NCBI GenBank assembly: GCA_019309945.1
Contig: JAFDFH010000004.1
Span: 1-32,930, forward strand
Reading direction: 5' to 3'
Length of the DNA stretch: 32,930 nucleotides
From: Deltaproteobacteria bacterium
GTDB taxonomy: Bacteria > Desulfobacterota > Desulfobacteria > Desulfobacterales > JAFDFH01
Of the stretch, positions 1-32,270 are shown piece by piece. The notes under the pieces are model-generated. The model did not search any database and was not told the origin of the DNA. It was given only the letters and a program-made list of their open reading frames with translations. The position numbers and the translations under genes were made by a program. Position 1 is the first letter of the stretch; every line of letters begins with the position of its first letter.

Positions 1-83
1 AAAACTACTACAGAGATTTAAAAAGCTATTTTTAGTGCCCGAACGAAAAATAGATCGTTTTTCCAAGTTCAAGGAAGGCAAAG

Positions 84-353
84 ATAACTTCTCAATATGT
101 TCTGGTAGGCCCGCTGCGCCATCCGATAATTTTTTTCAATATGGCCAAAACTTGCCGTTAAGGGCACTTAACAGTGACCCGCGCACGGGATCTAAAATGA
201 GTGTGTCGCTTAGCACAAACAGACTACAATTAACAATTTATCCTGTTCGGGTCTATGTAAGCCGCTCTAAATGGCTTCAAACAGTTGCCCGCTTTGAAAA
301 AAATCACCGGATGATTCCGCTGGTATGTTAAACATAAGTTTTTTAGAAGTTAC
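84..353 (+). mobile_element. MITE family A, copy 1 (270 bp, decayed)
   Basis: Colinear with 32452..32721, about 27 mismatches in 270 by manual count. Ends ATAACTTCTCAA / TTTAGAAGTTAC are imperfect inverted repeats. No flanking target duplication is visible. Confidence 0.85.
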
Positions 354-448
354 GATGATTTCAGCCGATTCAACGCATGCACGGATGTTTCGAACAGACA
401 CTTAGCAACTGCGTGTGTCTATAGCAAATAATAACCGGGAGTATCAAA

Positions 449-737: not shown

Positions 738-2639
738 TCAGACCGTCGATTCGAGTATGATACCGCGGGCTCCGGCCACGGTTGGAAAAGCGGAAAGATT
801 GGTGTGGGGCAAGAAAAGACCTGCGATGTATTCGTCCATAAAGTGTCCGGAAACCGAAAGTTCGATGACAGTCAACTTGTCGGCAATATCTTCAGCCTGC
901 TTGCGTAAATTTTCCGAAAGGAGGCATAAATAGGCGCCGGTCACGGACGTGTTGCCAAGATATTTGAACTTCTCCCTGGGTTGATCCGGAAACATGCCTA
1001 TGGTAATCGCCTTTTCAATGTTCAAATACCTGCCAAAGCCCCCGGCGATATAAAAGGTGGAAATATCGTCAAAGGTCAGGCCGACTTCCTTTAGCAGAAT
1101 CATAAAACCGGCATAAATGGCGGCTTTGGCCCTTAAGATATTATCAATATCGGATTCGGTAATGGAAATCGTGTCGTCCCCGGTCTGATAAAGAATAAAT
1201 TCCGGCCCTGCGTCCGTCAAATGAATATGGTTTAAGCCAAGATCGGTACTGAATTTTCCTTTCGGTGAAATGATACCCTTTAAAAACATCTCCGAGATTG
1301 TGTCGATGATGCCGGAACCACAGATTCCTGACGGAACACCTTCCCCGATAACCGTGATTTCGGGTTCAAGGGTAGCTGGATTAATCTTCACGCTGTCAAT
1401 GGCGCCTTCGGTGGCCCGCATGCCATTTTTAAGACCTCCGCCCTCGAAGCAGGGACCCGCCGAGCAGGCTGCCGCCACCATCCACTCGGCATTTCCAATG
1501 ACAAGCTCTCCGTTCGTGCCTACATCAATAAAAGCGCATAGTTCTTGTTTTTCATGGATCTTGGTGGCAAGCACCCCTGAAACGATATCGCCGCCTACAT
1601 AACCGGCTACGCAGGGAAGCGTATAAACAGGAACATCAGGCATGACTTTTATGCCGATACGACCCGCACCTGCAATGGGAAAGCGATTGGTTGTGGTAAC
1701 GTATGGTTCTTTGCGAATCGAGGCTGGGTCAAAACCCAGAAAGAGCTGCATCATGGTTGTATTTCCCGCAATAACAATGCTTTCGATGGCCCTGTCTGAA
1801 AGACGGTATTTTTCTTTTAACGACTCAATCAGGCTGTTGATGTCATCGACTACGGCTTCTTTCAGGTCTCTCAGGCCGCCCTGTTCGGTGGCATATACAA
1901 TCCTGGAGATAACATCTTCGCCATAGATGATCTGATGGTTGTAGGTGGAGGCGATATCCACCAGTCGGCCCGTTGCGAGGTAAATCAGATAGACAATGAC
2001 CGTGGTGGTCCCAATATCGACGGCAAGCCCATAATCGTCCATTATTTTGTCCGCTTTCCCGGGTGATATTCTGATCACTTCCTTGCCGTATTCCGTATCC
2101 ATCAGGGTAACGGTTACGTGCCAGTCTTCCTGTCTCAGATTTCGGGCAAGCTCCCTTATAAGTCTGAAAGAGAAATTCGGGTTGCGAAACCCCATTTCGG
2201 CAAGCCCTCTTTTCAAGCGCTCCATGTCGCTGATATTGTCAGTAAGTGTGGGTACGGGCAGCTCCAAATATGCTTTGGTTGTCAATGGAGAAATACGAAC
2301 GTCTAATGAATTGAAAATATTTTCGAGATCCTCTGCTCTTCCTGTGGCGATTACCCCATCAACATTAAGAAGTGATGAGGCGGGGATTTCTATTTTTAAA
2401 TCGCTTTCAGGATAGGTATGGCAGGCGGTCGTATAGCCCTCCAGAATCTCTTTTTCCGAAAGAATTTCTTTTAATCGTGTCCTGTACTTACCCTCCTTTA
2501 CAATGACCCTGCACCGGCCGCATACCCCATCACCCCCACAGGGTGCGATGATGTTGACCCCACCGTTTTTAAGATTCTCCAGCAAAGTCAGTCGAGGATC
2601 AGCGTTGATCGTTTTCCCTGAGGGTAAGATTATTTGCAT
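738..2639 (-). CDS. ASKHA-domain ATP-dependent reductive activator of corrinoid proteins (RACo / DUF4445) with N-terminal 2Fe-2S domain
   Basis: N-terminal CGGDGVCGRC...C ferredoxin motif; DIGTTT, GEDVISRI, DVGTNGE, CSAGPCFEGG, GICGSG, AGGFG and GNTS motifs. Confidence 0.92.
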   Translation of the reverse strand: MQIILPSGKTINADPRLTLLENLKNGGVNIIAPCGGDGVCGRCRVIVKEGKYRTRLKEILSEKEILEGYTTACHTYPESDLKIEIPASSLLNVDGVIATGRAEDLENIFNSLDVRISPLTTKAYLELPVPTLTDNISDMERLKRGLAEMGFRNPNFSFRLIRELARNLRQEDWHVTVTLMDTEYGKEVIRISPGKADKIMDDYGLAVDIGTTTVIVYLIYLATGRLVDIASTYNHQIIYGEDVISRIVYATEQGGLRDLKEAVVDDINSLIESLKEKYRLSDRAIESIVIAGNTTMMQLFLGFDPASIRKEPYVTTTNRFPIAGAGRIGIKVMPDVPVYTLPCVAGYVGGDIVSGVLATKIHEKQELCAFIDVGTNGELVIGNAEWMVAAACSAGPCFEGGGLKNGMRATEGAIDSVKINPATLEPEITVIGEGVPSGICGSGIIDTISEMFLKGIISPKGKFSTDLGLNHIHLTDAGPEFILYQTGDDTISITESDIDNILRAKAAIYAGFMILLKEVGLTFDDISTFYIAGGFGRYLNIEKAITIGMFPDQPREKFKYLGNTSVTGAYLCLLSENLRKQAEDIADKLTVIELSVSGHFMDEYIAGLFLPHTNLSAFPTVAGARGIILESTV

Positions 2640-24847: not shown

Positions 24848-24923
24848 TGGAGCGGGCAACGAGATTCGAACTCGCGACACCAAGCTTGGGAAGCTTGTAC
24901 TCTACCAACTGAGCTATGCCCGC
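24848..24923 (-). tRNA. tRNA-Gly (CCC)
   Basis: Reverse complement GCGGGCATAGCTCAGTTGGTAGAGTACAAGCTTCCCAAGCTTGGTGTCGCGAGTTCGAATCTCGTTGCCCGCTCCA: 76-nt cloverleaf, anticodon CCC, encoded CCA. Confidence 0.98.
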
Positions 24924-24964: not shown

Positions 24965-25014
24965 TATTTTTCAACAATTAATTTGGATGCTGGTTACTTG
25001 AGGGTTGATGTATC

Positions 25015-25156
25015 GAGACCTTTGCAAAACGCCCCTTTTTCCCCAATTTCTGTGTCAGGCTCAAATTTTAATCCTCAAAATACTAAATGTATTCCTGTGG
25101 TTAAAATTTTCGCCTTCCTTGAACTTGAACAAAAAGGAGCATTTTGCAAAGGTCTC
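25015..25156 (+). mobile_element. MITE family B, copy 1 (142 bp; TIR GAGACCTTTGCAAAA)
   Basis: Perfect 15-bp terminal inverted repeats; core shared with 30001..30142 and 32119..32270. Confidence 0.88.
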
Positions 25157-25224
25157 GTACTGTGAAGAAAAAGGGATACGCTCAAAAACTGTAAGGGGGA
25201 GCATTACCGATTTGTTAATAAGGG

Positions 25225-25575
25225 TTATTCAATCAGCATATCGCGAATGTTTTCAAGTTCTCTGCGGACCTCTTCAAGCGTGGCGGTCGAAGATTTTTTC
25301 TTTTTTTCGGTGGTCAGGGAAGCCAGATGTTGCTTTGCTCCCTGAATCGTATATTTTTTAGCATAAAGGAGGTGTTTGATTCTCAAAATTAACTCGACAT
25401 CACTTTTTCGATAAAGGCGCTGGCCGGAAGAGGTTCGTTTTGGTTTTATCTTTTTGAATTCAGTTTCCCAAAATCTTAAAACATAGGCTGGAACGCCCGA
25501 AATATCGCTGACTTCTCCGATTCTAAAATATAGCTTGTCGGGCAATTCTTTGTGGGAAGATGGATTATTTTGCAT
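25225..25575 (-). CDS. MerR family transcriptional regulator (pheT-linked type)
   Basis: LPDKLYFRIGEVS, VLRFWETEF, GQRLY, YTIQGAK; ATG at 25575 preferred over TTG at 25605. Confidence 0.93.
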   Translation of the reverse strand: MQNNPSSHKELPDKLYFRIGEVSDISGVPAYVLRFWETEFKKIKPKRTSSGQRLYRKSDVELILRIKHLLYAKKYTIQGAKQHLASLTTEKKKKSSTATLEEVRRELENIRDMLIE

Positions 25576-25628
25576 TTTAGAGGCGAAAGACGAAATCTTT
25601 AACAACGGGAACGCTTAACCGCATATCC

Positions 25629-28043
25629 TTACCGCGGTAACATTCCATCAAATGCGTCTATAAGTTTATCTGTAATATCCCTATGTAGTTGATTTACATT
25701 GTCATCTTCAAGTGTCTCTTTTGGCGATCGGTATATTATTCGAAGAGAGATACTTTTTTTACCGGGTGGAATCGGATCACCTTCGAACGTATTAAATAAA
25801 AGTACCCTTTCCACCAGGTCTTCGTCAATTGCGTTAATGCTTTCCATTATATTTCTGGATTCGATATCCTTATTTATAATAATGGTAATGTCTCGAGCGA
25901 CGGCGGGAAATTTGGGCAGTGGTTTTGAGTGCCGAATGTCGGGGATGTAAGGTATGAGGGTGTCCAGATTAAGTTCGAAAATAAAGGCGGCTTGCTTCAA
26001 ATCATAATTCCGAAGGACTTGAGGCGTTACTTCCCCAACAAGACCCAGGGTGTCATTGCAAGTGTTGATACATGCGGTATATCCGGGTTTTGTATATGTA
26101 CAAGAAATTCCGGGTATTTGGGTGAATATGATGTTGTCGACATTCAAACTGTACAACAGGCCTTCAATCACGCCTTTGATATCGTAAAAATCACAAACGG
26201 TTTCATCATGATGCCAAGAAGCATCAAACCTTGTCCCGGTCCAGATACCTGCCAGCATTTCTATTTCTTCCGGCAGGTTGTCCGGGCCTCTACTGATAAA
26301 GATTTTTCCCACTTCAAACAATTTAAGATTTCTGACTTGATGAGCAATGTTGCGGTGCACCGTTTCTAATAGGCCGGGAATCAATGAAGTTCTCATGACG
26401 GCCTGATCTTCTGTCAAGGGGTTCAAAACATCTACCATCTTCCTTCTTGAATCGTCCGATTGAAGGGCGAGATGATCCCCCGATTTTTTGCTGATAAAAC
26501 TGTAATTGATTGCTTCCGTAAAGCCAAATCCGGTCATCATTGCTTTTATCGTATTTCTGATATCCAATTGCTTGGAAGCTGGACGGGCTTCGGCAGGTAT
26601 CAGTGGAAACGTGGTCGGAATAGTATTATACCCCGAAAGACGGGCAACCTCTTCCATAAGATCGACAGGTCTTTCAATATCCACTCTGAAAGAGGGAGGA
26701 AACACAGTGAGTTTATCACCATTATTTTTTTTCACGTCGAATTCGATCGATTTCAACAGATCTTCCATGTTGTTTTGATCCAGGTGGGTTCCAAGGATAC
26801 GGTTTGTAGCCTTGACACTCAAAGCTATCGCTTGCTTTGATATCTTGCCGGGATGTTCATCAATAATTCCTTCGATTAACCGGCCCCCTGCGATTGTAGC
26901 CATTAGCTGAGCGGCTCTGTTTGCTGCTCTTAGCGTGCCTTCTGGATCGACGCCGCGTTCAAAACGGTGGGAAGCCTCCGTGCTTGAGCCTATCTTCTTT
27001 GAAGTTCTTCGAATACTTGTGGGGCTGAAATACGCACTTTCAATCAGAACACGTGTGCTGCCCGCTTCTATTTCCGAGTTAAGCCCCCCCATGACGCCTG
27101 CAATGGCTACAGGTCCACGCCCATCGCAGATCATCAGTATATCCCGGGAAAGTATTCGTTCTTTATGGTCAAGCGTGGTAAACGTTTCACCTTCATTTGC
27201 CAGTCGGACAACAATTCTATTTTCGACCAAACGGTCAAAATCAAATGCGTGTAGCGGTTGACCGGTTTCCAATAATACAAAGTTGGTGATGTCAACAATG
27301 TTGTTAATCGGCCTTAATCCAACCGACAGGAGACGGTCCTGAAGCCAAAAGGGAGAGGCTTCAACCGAAATGTCCACCAGAAGCCTTGCAACGTATCTCC
27401 GACAGTGGTCCGGCGCTTCGATGACGACAGAAGTGTGCGCAGCAATATTGTCGATTGTTTCGGGGAGCGTACATTCGGGATATTTTAACCTTGTTTTCTG
27501 GATCGCGGCGATTTCTCTACCGACACCGATGATACTTAGACAGTCTGGTCGGTTTGGAGTAAGATCGATTTCAAGCACTTTGTCTGAAAGCTCAAGTGCT
27601 TTTGCGAGCGGATTTCCCACAATTAAAGATGGATCGAGGATCATGATCCCGGAGCGGTCTGTGCCCAGTCCCAGTTCCTTCGCGCTGCACAGCATACCTT
27701 CCGAGGGCACGCCGCGTATGATTTCCTTTTCTAAAGTAGTTCCATCAGAAAGAAGAGTTCCGGGTAAAGCCACCGGTGCAAGTGAATTTTTGTTGATGTT
27801 TGGGGCTCCACATACAATAGAGATCATGCGGTTACCAACATCCACATTGCAAAGCTTTAGCTTGGCAATGTGGGGATGAGGGTTGATTTCATTGATGCGG
27901 CCAACGACGACACGGTTCAGGTATTCATATCGATCGGAAACGGATTCAACTTCAAGCCCGACCATGGTAAGTGCGTCGGCCAGATCATTGATCTCCATTT
28001 CGATTGGAACATATTTATTTAGCCAGCTCAAACTAGCTTTCAT
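25629..28043 (-). CDS. pheT: Phenylalanine--tRNA ligase beta subunit
   Basis: IVCGAPN, SEGMLCS, TPNRPD, GQPLHAFD, RFERGVD, DLMEEVAR, FDX-ACB C-terminus. Confidence 0.99.
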   Translation of the reverse strand: MKASLSWLNKYVPIEMEINDLADALTMVGLEVESVSDRYEYLNRVVVGRINEINPHPHIAKLKLCNVDVGNRMISIVCGAPNINKNSLAPVALPGTLLSDGTTLEKEIIRGVPSEGMLCSAKELGLGTDRSGIMILDPSLIVGNPLAKALELSDKVLEIDLTPNRPDCLSIIGVGREIAAIQKTRLKYPECTLPETIDNIAAHTSVVIEAPDHCRRYVARLLVDISVEASPFWLQDRLLSVGLRPINNIVDITNFVLLETGQPLHAFDFDRLVENRIVVRLANEGETFTTLDHKERILSRDILMICDGRGPVAIAGVMGGLNSEIEAGSTRVLIESAYFSPTSIRRTSKKIGSSTEASHRFERGVDPEGTLRAANRAAQLMATIAGGRLIEGIIDEHPGKISKQAIALSVKATNRILGTHLDQNNMEDLLKSIEFDVKKNNGDKLTVFPPSFRVDIERPVDLMEEVARLSGYNTIPTTFPLIPAEARPASKQLDIRNTIKAMMTGFGFTEAINYSFISKKSGDHLALQSDDSRRKMVDVLNPLTEDQAVMRTSLIPGLLETVHRNIAHQVRNLKLFEVGKIFISRGPDNLPEEIEMLAGIWTGTRFDASWHHDETVCDFYDIKGVIEGLLYSLNVDNIIFTQIPGISCTYTKPGYTACINTCNDTLGLVGEVTPQVLRNYDLKQAAFIFELNLDTLIPYIPDIRHSKPLPKFPAVARDITIIINKDIESRNIMESINAIDEDLVERVLLFNTFEGDPIPPGKKSISLRIIYRSPKETLEDDNVNQLHRDITDKLIDAFDGMLPR

Positions 28044-28064
28044 ATCGAAATGACCTATAACCCA

Positions 28065-29072
28065 TTAAAACTGCTTTAAGAATCTGAAATTGTTTTCAAA
28101 ATACTTTCGAATATCATCGATTCGGTATTTCAGCATGGCGATTCGCTCCACGCCCATGCCAAAAGCAAATCCGGTGTATCGGGTGGTGTCGTATCCTACG
28201 ATTTCAAAAACAGCAGGATGAACCATACCCGCGCCTAGCACCTCGAGCCATCCCGTGTGGGAACAAATTCTGCATCCTTTACCTCTGCATTGGACACATA
28301 GAATATCGATCTCTGCACTGGGTTCAGTAAACGGGAAGAAACTGGGACGGAATCTGAGGCTTGTCTGGTCATCAAACATTCGGTGAACAAATGTGGTTAG
28401 AATCCCTTTAAGATCGCCGAAGGAAACCTTTTTGTCGACCAATAGACCTTCCACCTGATGAAACATCGGTGTGTGGGTCAGATCGGAATCGCATCGGTAG
28501 ACTTTGCCCGGCGCAATTACTCTTAAAGGCGGTGAATGTTTCTCCATTACTCTCACCTGGATGGGAGATGTGTGTGTTCGCAGGACAATCGCATCGGAAA
28601 TATAGAACGTATCTTGCATGTCCCGTGCAGGGTGATTTTTTGGAATATTAAGCGCTTCAAAATTATAGTAATCTTTTTCTACCTCCGGTCCTTCAGCAAT
28701 ATCAAAGCCCAGTCTTGTAAAAATGTCACAAATCTGAAGGGTAATTTGTGTGATAGGATGCAGATAGCCCCGTTGAGCCGTTCTTCCAGGCAATGAAACG
28801 TCAATTCGGTCATCTGTTTCAGACGGCTCGGTTTCAAAACGTCGAATGGCTTCTCGGAACTGTGCATCCAGGAAATGCTTGATTTCATTGGCCTCTTTTC
28901 CGATGTCGGGACGTTTTTGCGGTGGGAGTTTGGAGATATTCCTTAGGAATTGAGTAACGATACCCTTTCGGCCCAGATAGCGGATGGAGAGGGCTTGGAT
29001 ACTTTCGAGATCCGGGGCTGATTGAAGTTTCTCCAGCGCCTCGGCCTTGATCTGTCCGATGGATTTTTTCAC
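28065..29072 (-). CDS. pheS: Phenylalanine--tRNA ligase alpha subunit
   Basis: HPARDMQDTF, LRTHTS, FHQVEG, FPFTEPS, GFAFGMGVER. Confidence 0.99.
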   Translation of the reverse strand: MKKSIGQIKAEALEKLQSAPDLESIQALSIRYLGRKGIVTQFLRNISKLPPQKRPDIGKEANEIKHFLDAQFREAIRRFETEPSETDDRIDVSLPGRTAQRGYLHPITQITLQICDIFTRLGFDIAEGPEVEKDYYNFEALNIPKNHPARDMQDTFYISDAIVLRTHTSPIQVRVMEKHSPPLRVIAPGKVYRCDSDLTHTPMFHQVEGLLVDKKVSFGDLKGILTTFVHRMFDDQTSLRFRPSFFPFTEPSAEIDILCVQCRGKGCRICSHTGWLEVLGAGMVHPAVFEIVGYDTTRYTGFAFGMGVERIAMLKYRIDDIRKYFENNFRFLKQF

Positions 29073-29234
29073 TTTTTAGGCACTATGTTGAGACTAAAAT
29101 TCCGGATTCCTGCGATTCATTATTCCAATTAGGTGCAAAGCAAACGCAGTTCCCTTGAACACAATCGGCTAATTTTTGCGGTCATTCAATGATGAAACGA
29201 CAAATGCTGTTTGTCCTGTATACCGAATCCCGAG

Positions 29235-29585
29235 TTAAATCTGTTCGGAGGCAAGATTGACGATCCGGGTAAATCCAGCCGGATCAGATATTGCCAATTC
29301 CGCAAGAACTTTTCTGTCAAGGGCAATATTGGCGCGTTTTAATCCATGAATAAATTTACCGTAGGTAAGATTATTCATACGCACAGCTGCATTGATCCTG
29401 ATGATCCAGAGTCTCCTGAAATCACGTTTACGCACCCGTCGATCTCGGTAAGCATACATGAGAGCCTTATCTACAGCGTCTGCTGCGGTGCGGAATAATT
29501 TACTGCGACCGCCGCGAAACCCTTTCGCCAGTTTCAACACTTTTTTTCGTCTTCTTCTTGCTTTATAACCTCTTTTAACACGCAT
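29235..29585 (-). CDS. rplT: 50S ribosomal protein L20
   Basis: MRVKRG..., [19 protein letters not shown]; ATG at 29585 with AGGAG SD. Confidence 0.99.
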
Positions 29586-29636
29586 TGTTATTCTCCTAAA
29601 GATTTCGAATTTCTTCAAAGCTCTGCGGCCGTCTTT

Positions 29637-29834
29637 CTATCCATTCGGAAGGAGTTGGCTTAAGACCTTTTTATTTGTCTTATCAACAAGATGGCTCTTT
29701 CTCAGGGATCTTTTACGTTTGGTGGTTTTTTTTGTTAAAATATGATTTGCATGGGATTTTGAATAAACCAGTTTACCCGTTCCGGTTTTTCTAAAACGTT
29801 TTGCTGCAGATCGGTTGGTTTTTATTTTTGGCAT
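29637..29834 (-). CDS. rpmI: 50S ribosomal protein L35
   Basis: [14 protein letters not shown]...HILTKK; AAGGAG SD. Confidence 0.99.
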
Positions 29835-29857
29835 TGTTTATCTTCTCCTTATTTCTC

Positions 29858-29903
29858 AAAAAAATAGATGGCGTGAGCAATCGGTAATTACAAGCTCACG
29901 CCA
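29858..29903 (-). terminator. Terminator/attenuator-like hairpin between infC and rpmI
   Basis: 10-bp perfect stem TGGCGTGAGC/GCTCACGCCA followed on the minus strand by TCTATTTTTTT. Confidence 0.65.
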
Positions 29904-30000
29904 CCATTGAAAAATTTCATCAAATCATTTAATGGGTCACACTTTTCAATAAACGGATATTTTTATCTGGTTCGGGAGGGTGTTTATCCTCAATTCATTT

Positions 30001-30142
30001 GAGCCAATTTCAAAACGTCCCATTTTGCCCAATCTCTGCGTCAGGCTCAAATTTTAATCCTCGAAATACTATATGTATTCCTGTGGTTAAAATTTCTGCC
30101 TTCCTTGACCTTGAACAAACTGAAACGTTTTGAAACTGGCTC
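30001..30142 (+). mobile_element. MITE family B, copy 2 (142 bp; TIR GAGCCARTTTCAAAACGT)
   Basis: 18-bp TIR with one mismatch; flanked by ATTT on both sides; 9 bp downstream of the infC stop. Confidence 0.88.
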
Positions 30143-30151
30143 ATTTGCAAA

Positions 30152-30673
30152 TTATTTTGGCGCCAGGACCATCATCATCATACGGCCCTCAAATTTGGGG
30201 AACTGCTCCACTATTGAGATGTCAGCAGTTTCTATCGAAATTTTTTCAAGTAAATCTTTCCCGCGCTGGGAAAACGCAATTTCACGCCCCCTGAAAATCA
30301 CAGAGACTTTGACCTTGTCTTTTTTTTCTAAAAATTTCTTGATATGACCGAGCTTGACCTGCAGATCGTGATCACTTGTTCTTGGGCGTATTTTTATCTC
30401 CTTAATCTGAAACGTGCTTTGCTTTTTTTTTGCTTCCTGTTGTTTTTTGGTCTGTTCATATTTGAACCGACCATAATCCATTATCTTGCAAACAGGGGGA
30501 TTTGCGCTGGGAGATATTTCAACCAGATCTAGACCAAAATCAGCAGCCGTTGCCAGTGCCTTATATGTTGGAATAATGCCAACCTGATTCCCGTCAGGAT
30601 CGATTACTCTCACCTCTTTTGCTCTTATATCCTTGTTAATATTTGTTCTGTTTACTTGTCTTGGTCTAGCTAT
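30152..30673 (-). CDS. infC: Translation initiation factor IF-3 (non-canonical ATA start)
   Basis: VRVIDPDG, LDLVEISP, PPVCKIMDYG, FRGRE. The frame is open 20 codons upstream of the GTG at 30613 to ATA at 30673, preceded by AGGAGGTGA. Confidence 0.96.
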   Translation of the reverse strand: MARPRQVNRTNINKDIRAKEVRVIDPDGNQVGIIPTYKALATAADFGLDLVEISPSANPPVCKIMDYGRFKYEQTKKQQEAKKKQSTFQIKEIKIRPRTSDHDLQVKLGHIKKFLEKKDKVKVSVIFRGREIAFSQRGKDLLEKISIETADISIVEQFPKFEGRMMMMVLAPK

Positions 30674-30891
30674 ACCTTCACCTCCTAAAATTCGAATTCG
30701 TTTTTTCTTTTTTAAGGATGCTGAATGGAATGAAATCGTGTAGATGAATATAGAATAACATTAGGAAATGCAAGAAAAAAATGCAAGAAAAAATGAAGGG
30801 CCAAGACCGGGAGAAATCGTTGCGTTTTTAAATGAAATAATTCTTCCAACCCTGTGATACGTTGACGTGATGGAAAACGGACAGGAAAAGT

Positions 30892-31392
30892 TTACTGGCC
30901 AAGTGTATGTTCGGCTAAAAGGCTTCCTTTACAGTAAGTATTTTTTGGATTTTGAAAATAGGCTTTTAAAAGTTCGAGACTCTCTTTACGCAATATGTTC
31001 GGTATGATGGATATTTTACGATTTTTGTACAAAGGGGTTAGTTTTGTCAAATCACAGCAGGTGCCCCCACCCATGACGTCTTCATAGGCGTATACGATTT
31101 TCCCAATACCGCTGAGTAAAATGGCGCCGAAACACATCAAACAGGGTTCTAAGGTACAAAACAGTGTGATTCCGCTTGGATCTATATCCTTGTTGAGATC
31201 TACAAATCGTCGTAAGGCCACCATTTCGGCATGGTCTATTTCATTCAGGGAATCTGCTGTAGTTCCTGTTCGGGATCCAGTAACAAGAACCTTGCCCTGA
31301 AATACCATGACACATCCAACAGGGAATTCCCCCACAGAAAAAGCGGATTTGGCCTGGTCCAAAGCTTTTTTCATAATTTTTTCGTAATTCAT
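30892..31392 (-). CDS. Nucleoside/tRNA adenosine deaminase family protein (TadA-like)
   Basis: GEFPVGC, HAE and TLEPCLMC zinc motifs. The upstream ORF extension lies in a MITE, so ATG 31392 (or 31404) is preferred. Confidence 0.88.
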   Translation of the reverse strand: MNYEKIMKKALDQAKSAFSVGEFPVGCVMVFQGKVLVTGSRTGTTADSLNEIDHAEMVALRRFVDLNKDIDPSGITLFCTLEPCLMCFGAILLSGIGKIVYAYEDVMGGGTCCDLTKLTPLYKNRKISIIPNILRKESLELLKAYFQNPKNTYCKGSLLAEHTLGQ

Positions 31393-31408
31393 ATTGTTTC
31401 CCATCCTA

Positions 31409-31549
31409 GTGTCCATCCATAAATTAGGATTTTTGTTCAAGATCAAGGCCTGCGAAAAAAATAACCACAGGCATATAGCTGATATTCCGAGGATTATTTT
31501 TTGAGCATAACGAAGAGGTTGGGCAAAAAGACCATTTATGGATGGGCCC
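31409..31549 (-). mobile_element. MITE family B, copy 4 (diverged, inverted; TIR GTGTCCATCCATAAAT)
   Basis: GTGTCCATCCATAAAT / ATTTATGGATGGGCCC ends flanked by TA on both sides. Interior TTTGTTCAAGATCAAGG...AACCACAGG...CGAGGATTA...TTGAGC...GTTGGGCAAAA is the reverse complement of the family B core. Confidence 0.82.
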
Positions 31550-31553
31550 TAAC

Positions 31554-32105
31554 CTACAACCTACAAATCGTGTCGTCACATGGACAACTTCCATCAACTT
31601 CATAGGCATAGACAATCCTGGATTCCATTTCCGCCCGGTTTGCCGAAATTGGCTTAAACCGAATATCCGCAACTCTTTGCACCAATGTCATTTTGGAAGG
31701 AATTGAATCCAGGCCGCTTTGGATCACCTTCCCGGTGGCACCATCTAAAATCTCGGCGTCTTCGCCATTTGTGACAACAACAATTGGAACCTGATAAGAC
31801 GCAACCAGTCTTGATGCCGCCAGTGCCGGGCGATGTCGGGTCACAATGGAGCCGGGCCCGTATTTTATTATCATACAAACCTTACCGGACAGGAAAATCT
31901 TAAAATCGACCTTGACAATTGCACTTTTATCCCCGGCTTTTACAAGAAGTTTACATCGTGGTTCAATTTCATTTTTGGCATACTTCTTTTTTTCTACCAA
32001 CAGACGCGCCAAGTTCTGCCGATACCGTTCATCATGGGTATCTTCTAAGGTTTCACCGGTGATAAAATCGATTAATTCGCCAAGTATAAGGTGATGCCCA
32101 GTCAT
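31554..32105 (-). CDS. Stand-alone type I restriction enzyme HsdR N-terminal-like (HSDR_N) domain protein
   Basis: DFITG...DERYRQ.LAR.L...K.Y, VDF.I, IVVVTNG pattern recalled for HSDR_N_2-like proteins. Confidence 0.7.
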   Translation of the reverse strand: MTGHHLILGELIDFITGETLEDTHDERYRQNLARLLVEKKKYAKNEIEPRCKLLVKAGDKSAIVKVDFKIFLSGKVCMIIKYGPGSIVTRHRPALAASRLVASYQVPIVVVTNGEDAEILDGATGKVIQSGLDSIPSKMTLVQRVADIRFKPISANRAEMESRIVYAYEVDGSCPCDDTICRL

Positions 32106-32118
32106 AATCGCTCAAGTT

Positions 32119-32270
32119 GAGCCAATTTCAAAACGTCCCATTTTGCCCAATCTCTGCGTCAGGCTCAAAGTTTAATCCTAGAAATACCCAATGTATTCCG
32201 GCGGTTAATCCGCCTCAGGCGGATCGCCTTCCTTGACCTTGAACAAACTGAAACGTTTTGAAACGGGCTC
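32119..32270 (+). mobile_element. MITE family B, copy 3 (152 bp, with nested palindrome)
   Basis: Same TIR type as copy 2; flanked by GTT on both sides; contains extra ATCCGCCTCAGGCGGAT. Confidence 0.88.

Follow-up and report, generated by a model that had tools for sequence, protein, structure and literature searches.

One hairpin core enclosed by the terminal repeats of different insertion sequences in miniature transposable elements of the Desulfobacterales

The window analyzed here is a stretch of 32,930 nt (contig JAFDFH010000004.1 of GenBank assembly GCA_019309945.1, positions 1 to 32,930 of the forward strand) from a bacterium of the Desulfobacterales (JAFDFH01); it is contig C30 of a metagenome-assembled genome (MAG; G000) of 3.6 Mb in 557 contigs, which is 95% complete and 8.7% contaminated. 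Four small hairpin elements in this window share one core and differ in their ends. The explanation that we favor, with a probability of about 85%, is that they are non-autonomous DDE transposons (MITEs, or miniature inverted-repeat transposable elements) that have the ends of different insertion sequences (IS), are mobilized in trans, and contain a hairpin core under selection at the level of the element. They belong to one widespread MITE superfamily in the Desulfobacterales and other Desulfobacterota, and, judged from sequence comparison, their ends reproduce the ends used by at least three lineages of transposase that span two curated IS families. The usual account of MITEs is that they arise from one IS by deletion, the ends being conserved and the interior dispensable; in the present family, the conserved structured part is the interior, and the ends match at least two curated IS families (IS5 and ISNCY). 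The original prediction, which was made from the letters of the window, had spoken of an undescribed system, which overstates the case because the elements are MITEs, a known kind.

Elements, end types and target-site duplications

The following copies were found in the window. For the four complete elements, the coordinates, orientations and lengths agreed in full with the original prediction, as did the three end sequences quoted there, and the insertion noticed in element 4 is 10 nt long.

25015..25156, plus strand: element 1, end type A, tips GAGACCTTTGCAAAA, 142 bp
30001..30142, plus strand: element 2, end type B, tips GAGCCAATTTCAAAA, 142 bp
31409..31549, minus strand: element 3, end type C, tips GTGTCCATCC / GGGCCCATCC, 141 bp
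32119..32270, plus strand: element 4, end type B, 152 bp
35..83, minus strand: truncated fifth copy, end type D (the fourth end type), tip GTGCCCGAACGAAAA

The predicted shared core was recovered: the core pattern CCTTGANCTTGAACAAA occurs in the window four times exactly and once with two mismatches, against 0.06 expected from shuffles. When the four elements were aligned, the mean column identity was 78%, with the conserved blocks in the interior and not at the ends, and each element folds into one long hairpin (z of -3.1 to -12 against its own shuffles). The core of element 3 is a more diverged variant. On one arm of element 4 there is an accessory G+C hairpin of 10 nt (CCGCCTCAGGCGG); across the genome, 28 copies have this variant, and their backgrounds include type A as well as type B. 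The only exact target-site duplication in the window is that of element 2 (4 bp, ATTT, at 29997-30000 and 30143-30146); those of elements 1, 3 and 4 are imperfect, element 1 being flanked by GTATC and GTACT (an imperfect 5-bp duplication) and element 3 retaining TA alone of the expected TANNTA. The truncated copy is adjoined by TAAAAA, not by TANNTA, and is cut by a nested second repeat.

With a profile of the ~93-nt core, 476 matches were obtained in this genome, of which 376 are full length. The elements are imperfect palindromes of ~142 bp, in which the shared core and the inner arms (...AAAAC-NNNN-TTTTT...) are enclosed by terminal 11-20 bp of discrete types. End typing was performed for 364 copies with 45-nt flanks, and the left and right tips were of the same type in 302 of them, as expressed in the following rows (tip; copies with this type at both ends; duplication, with exact cases in this genome and in other genomes; target).

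Type A: GAGACCTTTGCAAAACG; 82 copies; 5 bp, exact in 49/82 and 18/41; no target consensus
Type B: GAGCCAATTTCAAAACG; 53 copies; 4 bp, exact in 24/53 and 3/8; no target consensus
Type C: GTGCCCATCCAGAAACG; 136 copies; 6 bp, exact in 76/136 and 9/13; TANNTA in 66/76
Type D: GTGCCTGAACGAAAACT; 31 copies; 6 bp, exact in 18/31 and 9/11; TANNTA in 18/18
Hybrid ends: 11 copies
At least one end unclassified: 51 copies

The shifted control for the duplications gave 0 in every end type.

Autonomous partner insertion sequences

Matching the terminal inverted repeats (TIRs) to autonomous IS, as had been suggested, yielded partners for all four types in related Desulfobacterales genomes, where every end type was found on a full IS and each on a different one. 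For type A, an IS of 1323 bp (L193) carries GAGACCTTTGCAA at both ends, so that the type A tips are identical to its TIRs, and encodes an IS5-family transposase; L169 and L182 are further examples. These partners are 1.3-1.5 kb in size, and their transposases match NF033581 with 167-259 bits (cutoff 140; 258.7 bits for L193). The likeness of the first TIR to the ends of IS1106 (IS5 family) suggested in the original prediction was addressed at the level of the family, by this IS5 membership of the type A partners. For type B, an IS of 1424 bp (L242) has GAGCCAATTTCAAAA exactly at both ends; L243 is a second case, and L171, an IS of the B group, carries the related tip GAGCCTCTTGCAAAA. The type B transposase belongs to a second DDE group, distant from that of type A, contains DUF772 and DDE_Tnp_1 domains and scores below all NCBIfam cutoffs. 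The tips of types C and D are identical to the TIRs of two ISNCY lineages, which likewise have a 6-bp duplication. The type D partners are IS of 1.85-1.93 kb with GTGCCTGAACGAAAA and an ISNCY transposase (NF033593, 501 bits; cutoff 325), and an exact 6-bp TANNTA duplication was seen in five of the eight D-tipped copies inspected (L210, L211, L213, L215, L216, L219, L235 and L236). For type C, an IS of 1835 bp (L226) with GTGTCCGTCCGG / GTGCCCGTCCGA is flanked by the duplication GAATTA, and its transposase is 34-39% identical to the type D transposases. We take these ISNCY partners to belong to the "ISDol1-like" subgroup. Members of the ISDol1 subgroup make a duplication of 6-7 bp.

Identity between the type A and type B transposases is about 22%, and blastp gave no real alignment of A/B transposases with C/D ones, so that drift from the ends of one IS does not account for the end types. 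The same is indicated by the types being discrete, each with its own duplication length (4, 5 or 6 bp) and a different autonomous IS, and a simple mutational series of one IS end, which the original prediction had named as a possible outcome, was not what we found. Its proposal of one core travelling with several transposase specificities gains support from the discrete ends, the duplications and the distinct partner IS, as far as sequence comparison can tell. The possibility that the core is the interior of a partner IS was rejected, since a nhmmer search with the core against 91 IS-bearing loci gave one separate MITE copy only.

In this genome, pairs of tips 0.4-6 kb apart enclosed ordinary genes between chance matches only, and the three PF01609 matches in G000 were without matching tips. 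Among well-assembled relatives, G001, G040 and G041 had almost no type A tips.

Evidence for mobility

An empty site for element 1 was found in the DNA run X7: one of its contigs (4032 nt; 98% identity over 3.9 kb) joins window position 25009 directly to 25157, without element 1 plus 5 bp. The infC-rpmI-rplT region was compared across 30 genomes, the present one among them. In three of these, the infC-rpmI gap contains a copy (type B here, type A in G011 and G004), with position and duplication differing among the three, and a copy occupies the rplT-rpmI gap of a fourth. The copies in the infC-rpmI gap are independent insertions and were not inherited.

Trans-mobilization by matching DDE transposases is well supported by this anatomy as the mechanism of movement. 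Each terminal type copies the inverted repeats of a different autonomous IS, and the matching DDE transposase would cut and paste the element in trans; because a terminal type copies the repeats of one IS, the matching transposase would leave its own duplication, of 5 bp for A, 4 bp for B, and 6 bp (TANNTA) for C and D.

Structure and strand specificity of the core

For the structure alignment, 123 distinct copies from about 80 genomes were used. RNAalifold gave 28 core pairs, 10 of which had compensatory double changes. Under a 53-pair structure of the whole hairpin, 86.8% of the cells were paired (80.0% in shuffles) and 355 cells were double changes (123.9 in shuffles). The covariation score was 0.210, as compared with 0.112 in shuffles (reached by 0/500) and 0.047-0.113 with slid partners, and the core helices were 97-99% paired. 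The covariation expected from the window is thus present in the larger alignment, and the compensatory changes pointed out there recur in the 123 copies: at 54/100 and 58/96 (UA to AU and the reverse), at 72/83 (CG to UA, 11 copies) and at 46/108 (GC to UA, 8 copies). The conserved imperfect pairing ATCCTC/CTGTGG, also noticed in the window, corresponds to two conserved G.U pairs on the opposite strand (66/89 and 67/88).

The better fold belongs to the minus-orientation RNA in 300 of 302 copies (mean values of about -55 to -60 versus -39 to -48 kcal/mol), and several G.U pairs are conserved in 87-112 of the 123 copies. An asymmetry of the tips (C versus T at tip position 4) was in part taken over from the ISNCY elements, whose left and right ends differ; the conserved G.U pairs lie inside the shared core and are not explained by this end asymmetry.

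Between divergent genes 59 copies were found, and 36 between convergent genes. A terminator or promoter role was rejected, the scan for an internal promoter consensus being at chance level (14 sites, 14.9 expected). The type B tip has an outward-facing TTGAAA hexamer that pairs with a -10-like hexamer of the flank, at 30130-30158 (plus strand) and 32131-32104 (minus strand); as the promoter count is at chance, these pairs are only a hint of hybrid promoters. In the metatranscriptome runs X18 and X20, the Logan contigs match only element-like sequence of other loci and are uninformative on transcription of the copies in the window.

Cores compared with ends

The consensus sequences of the end types were compared separately for the core and the tips.

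A and B: core identity 0.95, tip identity 0.64
A and D: core identity 0.92, tip identity 0.36
B and D: core identity 0.91, tip identity 0.18-0.45
C and D: core identity 0.72, tip identity 0.64-0.91

By these identities, type D has its ends and duplication in common with type C and its core in common with types A and B. In a tree of 120 cores, the end types were clustered (9 changes, versus 59.6 in shuffles). Since a single core is flanked by ends of IS5 type in some copies and of ISNCY type in others, the ends must have been replaced at least once. Within type A, the cores are mosaic combinations of five A/B diagnostic sites, with all four gametes at some pairs of sites, and pure A and pure B backgrounds share accessory insertions (variants of 103, 106 and 126 nt); the mosaic sites and common insertions point to probable recombination between copies in the A/B group. 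Insertion of the core into pre-existing short palindromes was rejected: the copies that consist of arms only have differing deletion junctions and hence look like internal deletions.

Accessory mini-hairpins of 10-47 nt are optional on one core arm (for example, TCCGCCTCAGGCGGA and GTGCCTGCCCCGTAGGTCCGGAAGATCGTACTGGGG), and were located in G000 at, for example, C39:5995, C356:4718, C377:4579, C62:3802 and C282:4086 (L278-L283). One accessory insert is common to type A and type B elements, and similar inserts are present in other genomes (L060, L088, L093 and L120). A second foldback family (~270 bp, inverted ends TAACTTCTCAA...CATCCGGTAATTTTTTTCAA) is found on many other G000 contigs as well as in the window, and is repeatedly inserted into, or abuts, copies of the family studied here at varying positions. 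Neither the accessory inserts nor this second repeat family had a match in Rfam.

Abundance and distribution

The elements are small (141-152 bp), non-coding and present in many copies, which occupy about 67 kb, or about 1.9% of the genome; an overlap with an open reading frame (ORF), as crudely called, was seen for 27 of the 376 full-length copies. Among 40 further genomes of the order, one per GTDB family, 22 contain the core (identity 85-98%); a phylum-wide sample of 300 other genomes gave 35 with the core, including members of other orders (identity up to 96%). An exact-pattern scan of 185,579 species genomes gave at least 117 loci. Among the matches listed, nearly all loci are in MAGs of Desulfobacterales type, the carriers being Desulfobacteraceae, Desulfococcus, Desulfonema, Desulfobacula, Desulfosudaceae, Desulfatiglandales and Syntrophaceae, and a few are on short contigs filed under other phyla. 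An assembly of Desulfobacterium sp. N47 is among these relatives. Copies in other genomes have the same four end types and further ones, such as GG[GC]CACCTCTAAAAATTGCC. The public runs that contain the window are cold-seep and marine-sediment metagenomes.

No Rfam family matched the elements; the window yielded the tRNA alone, and permissive scans gave only sub-threshold chance hits. A description of the family was not found in the literature on MITEs in Desulfobacter* and sulfate reducers, on ISDol1, or on the same interior with different TIRs; PMC10907252 deals with Thiohalocapsa and has no bearing on the family.

Surroundings of the elements in the window

Genes and repeats next to the copies are as follows.

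84..355, minus strand: unrelated foldback repeat of ~270 bp, ends TAACTTCTCAA..., inserted into the truncated type D copy
24851..24923, minus strand: tRNA gene, flanking element 1
29637..29834, minus strand: rpmI, flanking element 2
30152..30613, minus strand: infC, flanking element 2

The neighboring genes, housekeeping genes on the minus strand, are nusA, rimP, the tRNA gene, a MerR-family gene, pheT, pheS, rplT, rpmI, infC, a tadA-like deaminase gene and a gene for a HSDR_N protein. Element 2 is located within the infC-rpmI-rplT gene row, 9 nt downstream of infC, and element 3 abuts the start of the tadA-like gene. In the region 31397-31449, the likely ATG of the latter is 6 nt downstream of the end of element 3, and its longest ORF call (30892-31446) begins within the element; automatic annotation may thus extend the tadA-like gene into the repeat. 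In the infC-rpmI gap, upstream of rpmI, a conserved G+C hairpin (GGCGTGAGC...GCTCACGCC) was observed at ~29845-29910. It is kept across families, is also present in G004 and G011 (L265 and L259), was not called by Rfam at the gathering score, and may be a ribosomal-protein leader. At 738-2639 (minus strand), a RACo-type gene (activator of corrinoid iron-sulfur protein) stands beside genes for a cNMP-binding protein and a radical SAM/SPASM protein; this region is ordinary anaerobe metabolism and is unrelated to the repeat family.

Discussion

The core would persist across end types as a single-stranded hairpin (RNA or single-stranded DNA), readable on one strand only, with purifying selection acting on the element; such a hairpin may bring the two ends into proximity or allow transcripts to tolerate insertions, and recombination between copies would help to keep the cores alike. 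The conservation of the core could stem from selection on a single-strand hairpin, from concerted evolution or from horizontal spread. The original prediction had described the core as a structured cargo, either an RNA motif or a protein-binding hairpin: a conserved, structured, covarying core is indeed present, and it may act in either way. More tentatively, and with less confidence than doubt, we put forward that the core is a transposase-independent "chassis", a strand-specific hairpin that itself promotes mobilization or survival (for example, through keeping the two ends in contact or through binding of a host factor), and that unrelated IS ends were acquired by it more than once. If this is true, the family would parasitize several IS families simultaneously, its body being selected in its own right, and would be spreading across a whole phylum.

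Several results weigh against the explanation by trans-mobilized MITEs with a selected core. The copies are related to each other, so the shuffle controls overstate the significance of the covariation. The orientation of the elements relative to flanking co-directional genes (91 versus 71) is not significantly biased, which argues against strong host-level selection on a transcript. Duplications flanking the autonomous type A and type B IS were not evident in the three copies of each that were inspected. No homologue of 10 partner transposases was found assembled in this genome by tblastn (E <= 1e-3), and current mobility in this genome is accordingly unproven; IS elements often fail to assemble, and this MAG is in 557 contigs. 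As for the comparison of core and tip trees that had been proposed, the end types are clustered, and repeated end-swapping did not emerge from it: in approximately unbiased (AU) tests on the 93-column core tree, a single origin of C (p 0.47), of D (p 0.80) and of a C+D clade (p 0.62) was not rejected, so repeated capture of new ends is not demonstrated. Finally, with mosaic A/B cores and core identities of up to 96-98% between families and orders, much of the core's uniformity could be due to gene conversion and horizontal transfer, without selection.

This last point is the strength of an alternative that we regard as unlikely and yet keep in view, namely that the core is uniform mainly through concerted evolution, by gene conversion or recombination in a pool of hundreds of copies, and through recent horizontal spread with the IS, the hairpin being functionless and the tips alone being selected for transposase recognition. 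The four gametes among the mosaic A/B sites, the accessory insertions on both backgrounds, the 11 hybrid-ended copies, and the near identity of cores from different families and orders all agree with it, but it leaves unexplained the compensatory changes between lineages (10 of 28 core pairs), the retention of G.U pairs on one strand, and the diverged C-type core, which is 72-80% identical and has the same fold. Strand-specific structure with G.U pairs and covariation would also be expected of a host-domesticated functional RNA (a regulator, a processing or stability element, or a small RNA) that transposon ends merely disperse. Copies are found in or beside housekeeping operons, and bcr1 of Bacillus, the closest analogue, is reported as transcribed with compensatory changes (PMC3184786). 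We nevertheless judge a domesticated RNA improbable, given that the orientation is unbiased with respect to flanking genes, the copies are not concentrated at convergent 3' ends, the infC-rpmI gap insertions are non-orthologous between genomes, internal promoters are at chance, and Rfam has no match.

Two other accounts are already contradicted by the data. That all end types are drifted ends of one IS, moved by one transposase, might be suggested by a common architecture of the tips (G-A/T-G..CC, 5-7 variable nt, then RAAAC) and by the DDE_Tnp_1/DUF772-type domains of all the partner transposases; it is made very improbable by discrete types with few hybrids, by duplications of three different lengths, and by transposases that are about 22% identical (A and B) or not alignable by blastp (A/B with C/D) and match different curated families, IS5 and ISNCY. 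Less credible still is that the elements are REP/BIME-like palindromes moved by RAYT (Y1, IS200/IS605-type), or targets of hairpin-seeking IS. The whole element is admittedly a long hairpin, and short arms-only palindromes exist; but the duplications are of fixed length, the TIRs are identical to those of DDE IS, and the arms-only versions have heterogeneous deletion junctions instead of one empty form (no search for a RAYT gene was made).

Trans-mobilized MITEs with a selected core therefore remain our preferred explanation. The family is a natural test of whether the body of a MITE can aid its own spread independently of the transposase. It also poses a practical problem for annotation, as it makes up ~2% of the genome, breaks assemblies, and sits inside the housekeeping operons of many cold-seep and marine-sediment sulfate reducers.

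Comparison with known systems

The elements in the window encode nothing, unlike the "ISDol1-like" ISNCY elements and the IS5-family IS. Both kinds of IS supply end sequences, and the ISNCY partners also the 6-bp duplication (TANNTA for type D; GAATTA in the single C-type IS). The family resembles ordinary IS-derived MITEs (IS5- or IS630-derived) in having the TIRs and the duplication of the parent IS and, probably, in trans-mobilization, a likeness that holds for types C and D with respect to ISNCY; it differs from them in that the interior is not derived from the partner IS, and one interior is common to MITEs of different IS families.

One TIR family and a TA duplication characterize the Correia elements (CREE/NEMIS) of Neisseria, for which we know of no firmly established autonomous partner. 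Like the present family, they are hairpin MITEs of 100-160 bp in intergenic regions and operons, with a high copy number and subtypes, whereas the partners of the family here are identifiable and multiple. In a review, Correia elements are described as carrying an IHF site and promoters, which indicates that their interiors have a function (PMC3184786). The same review describes bcr1 of the Bacillus cereus group as a MITE-like element of ~155 bp with 5-bp direct repeats that is transcribed and has compensatory changes (PMC3184786). As far as that description goes, bcr1 and the family here are both small, non-coding and mobile, with 5-bp direct repeats and a distribution that is not conserved between strains or genomes, and in both the compensatory changes keep a folded single-stranded structure. 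In that description bcr1 is one family with one kind of duplication, whereas the family here combines a single core with at least four end types, duplications of 4, 5 and 6 bp, and different IS families.

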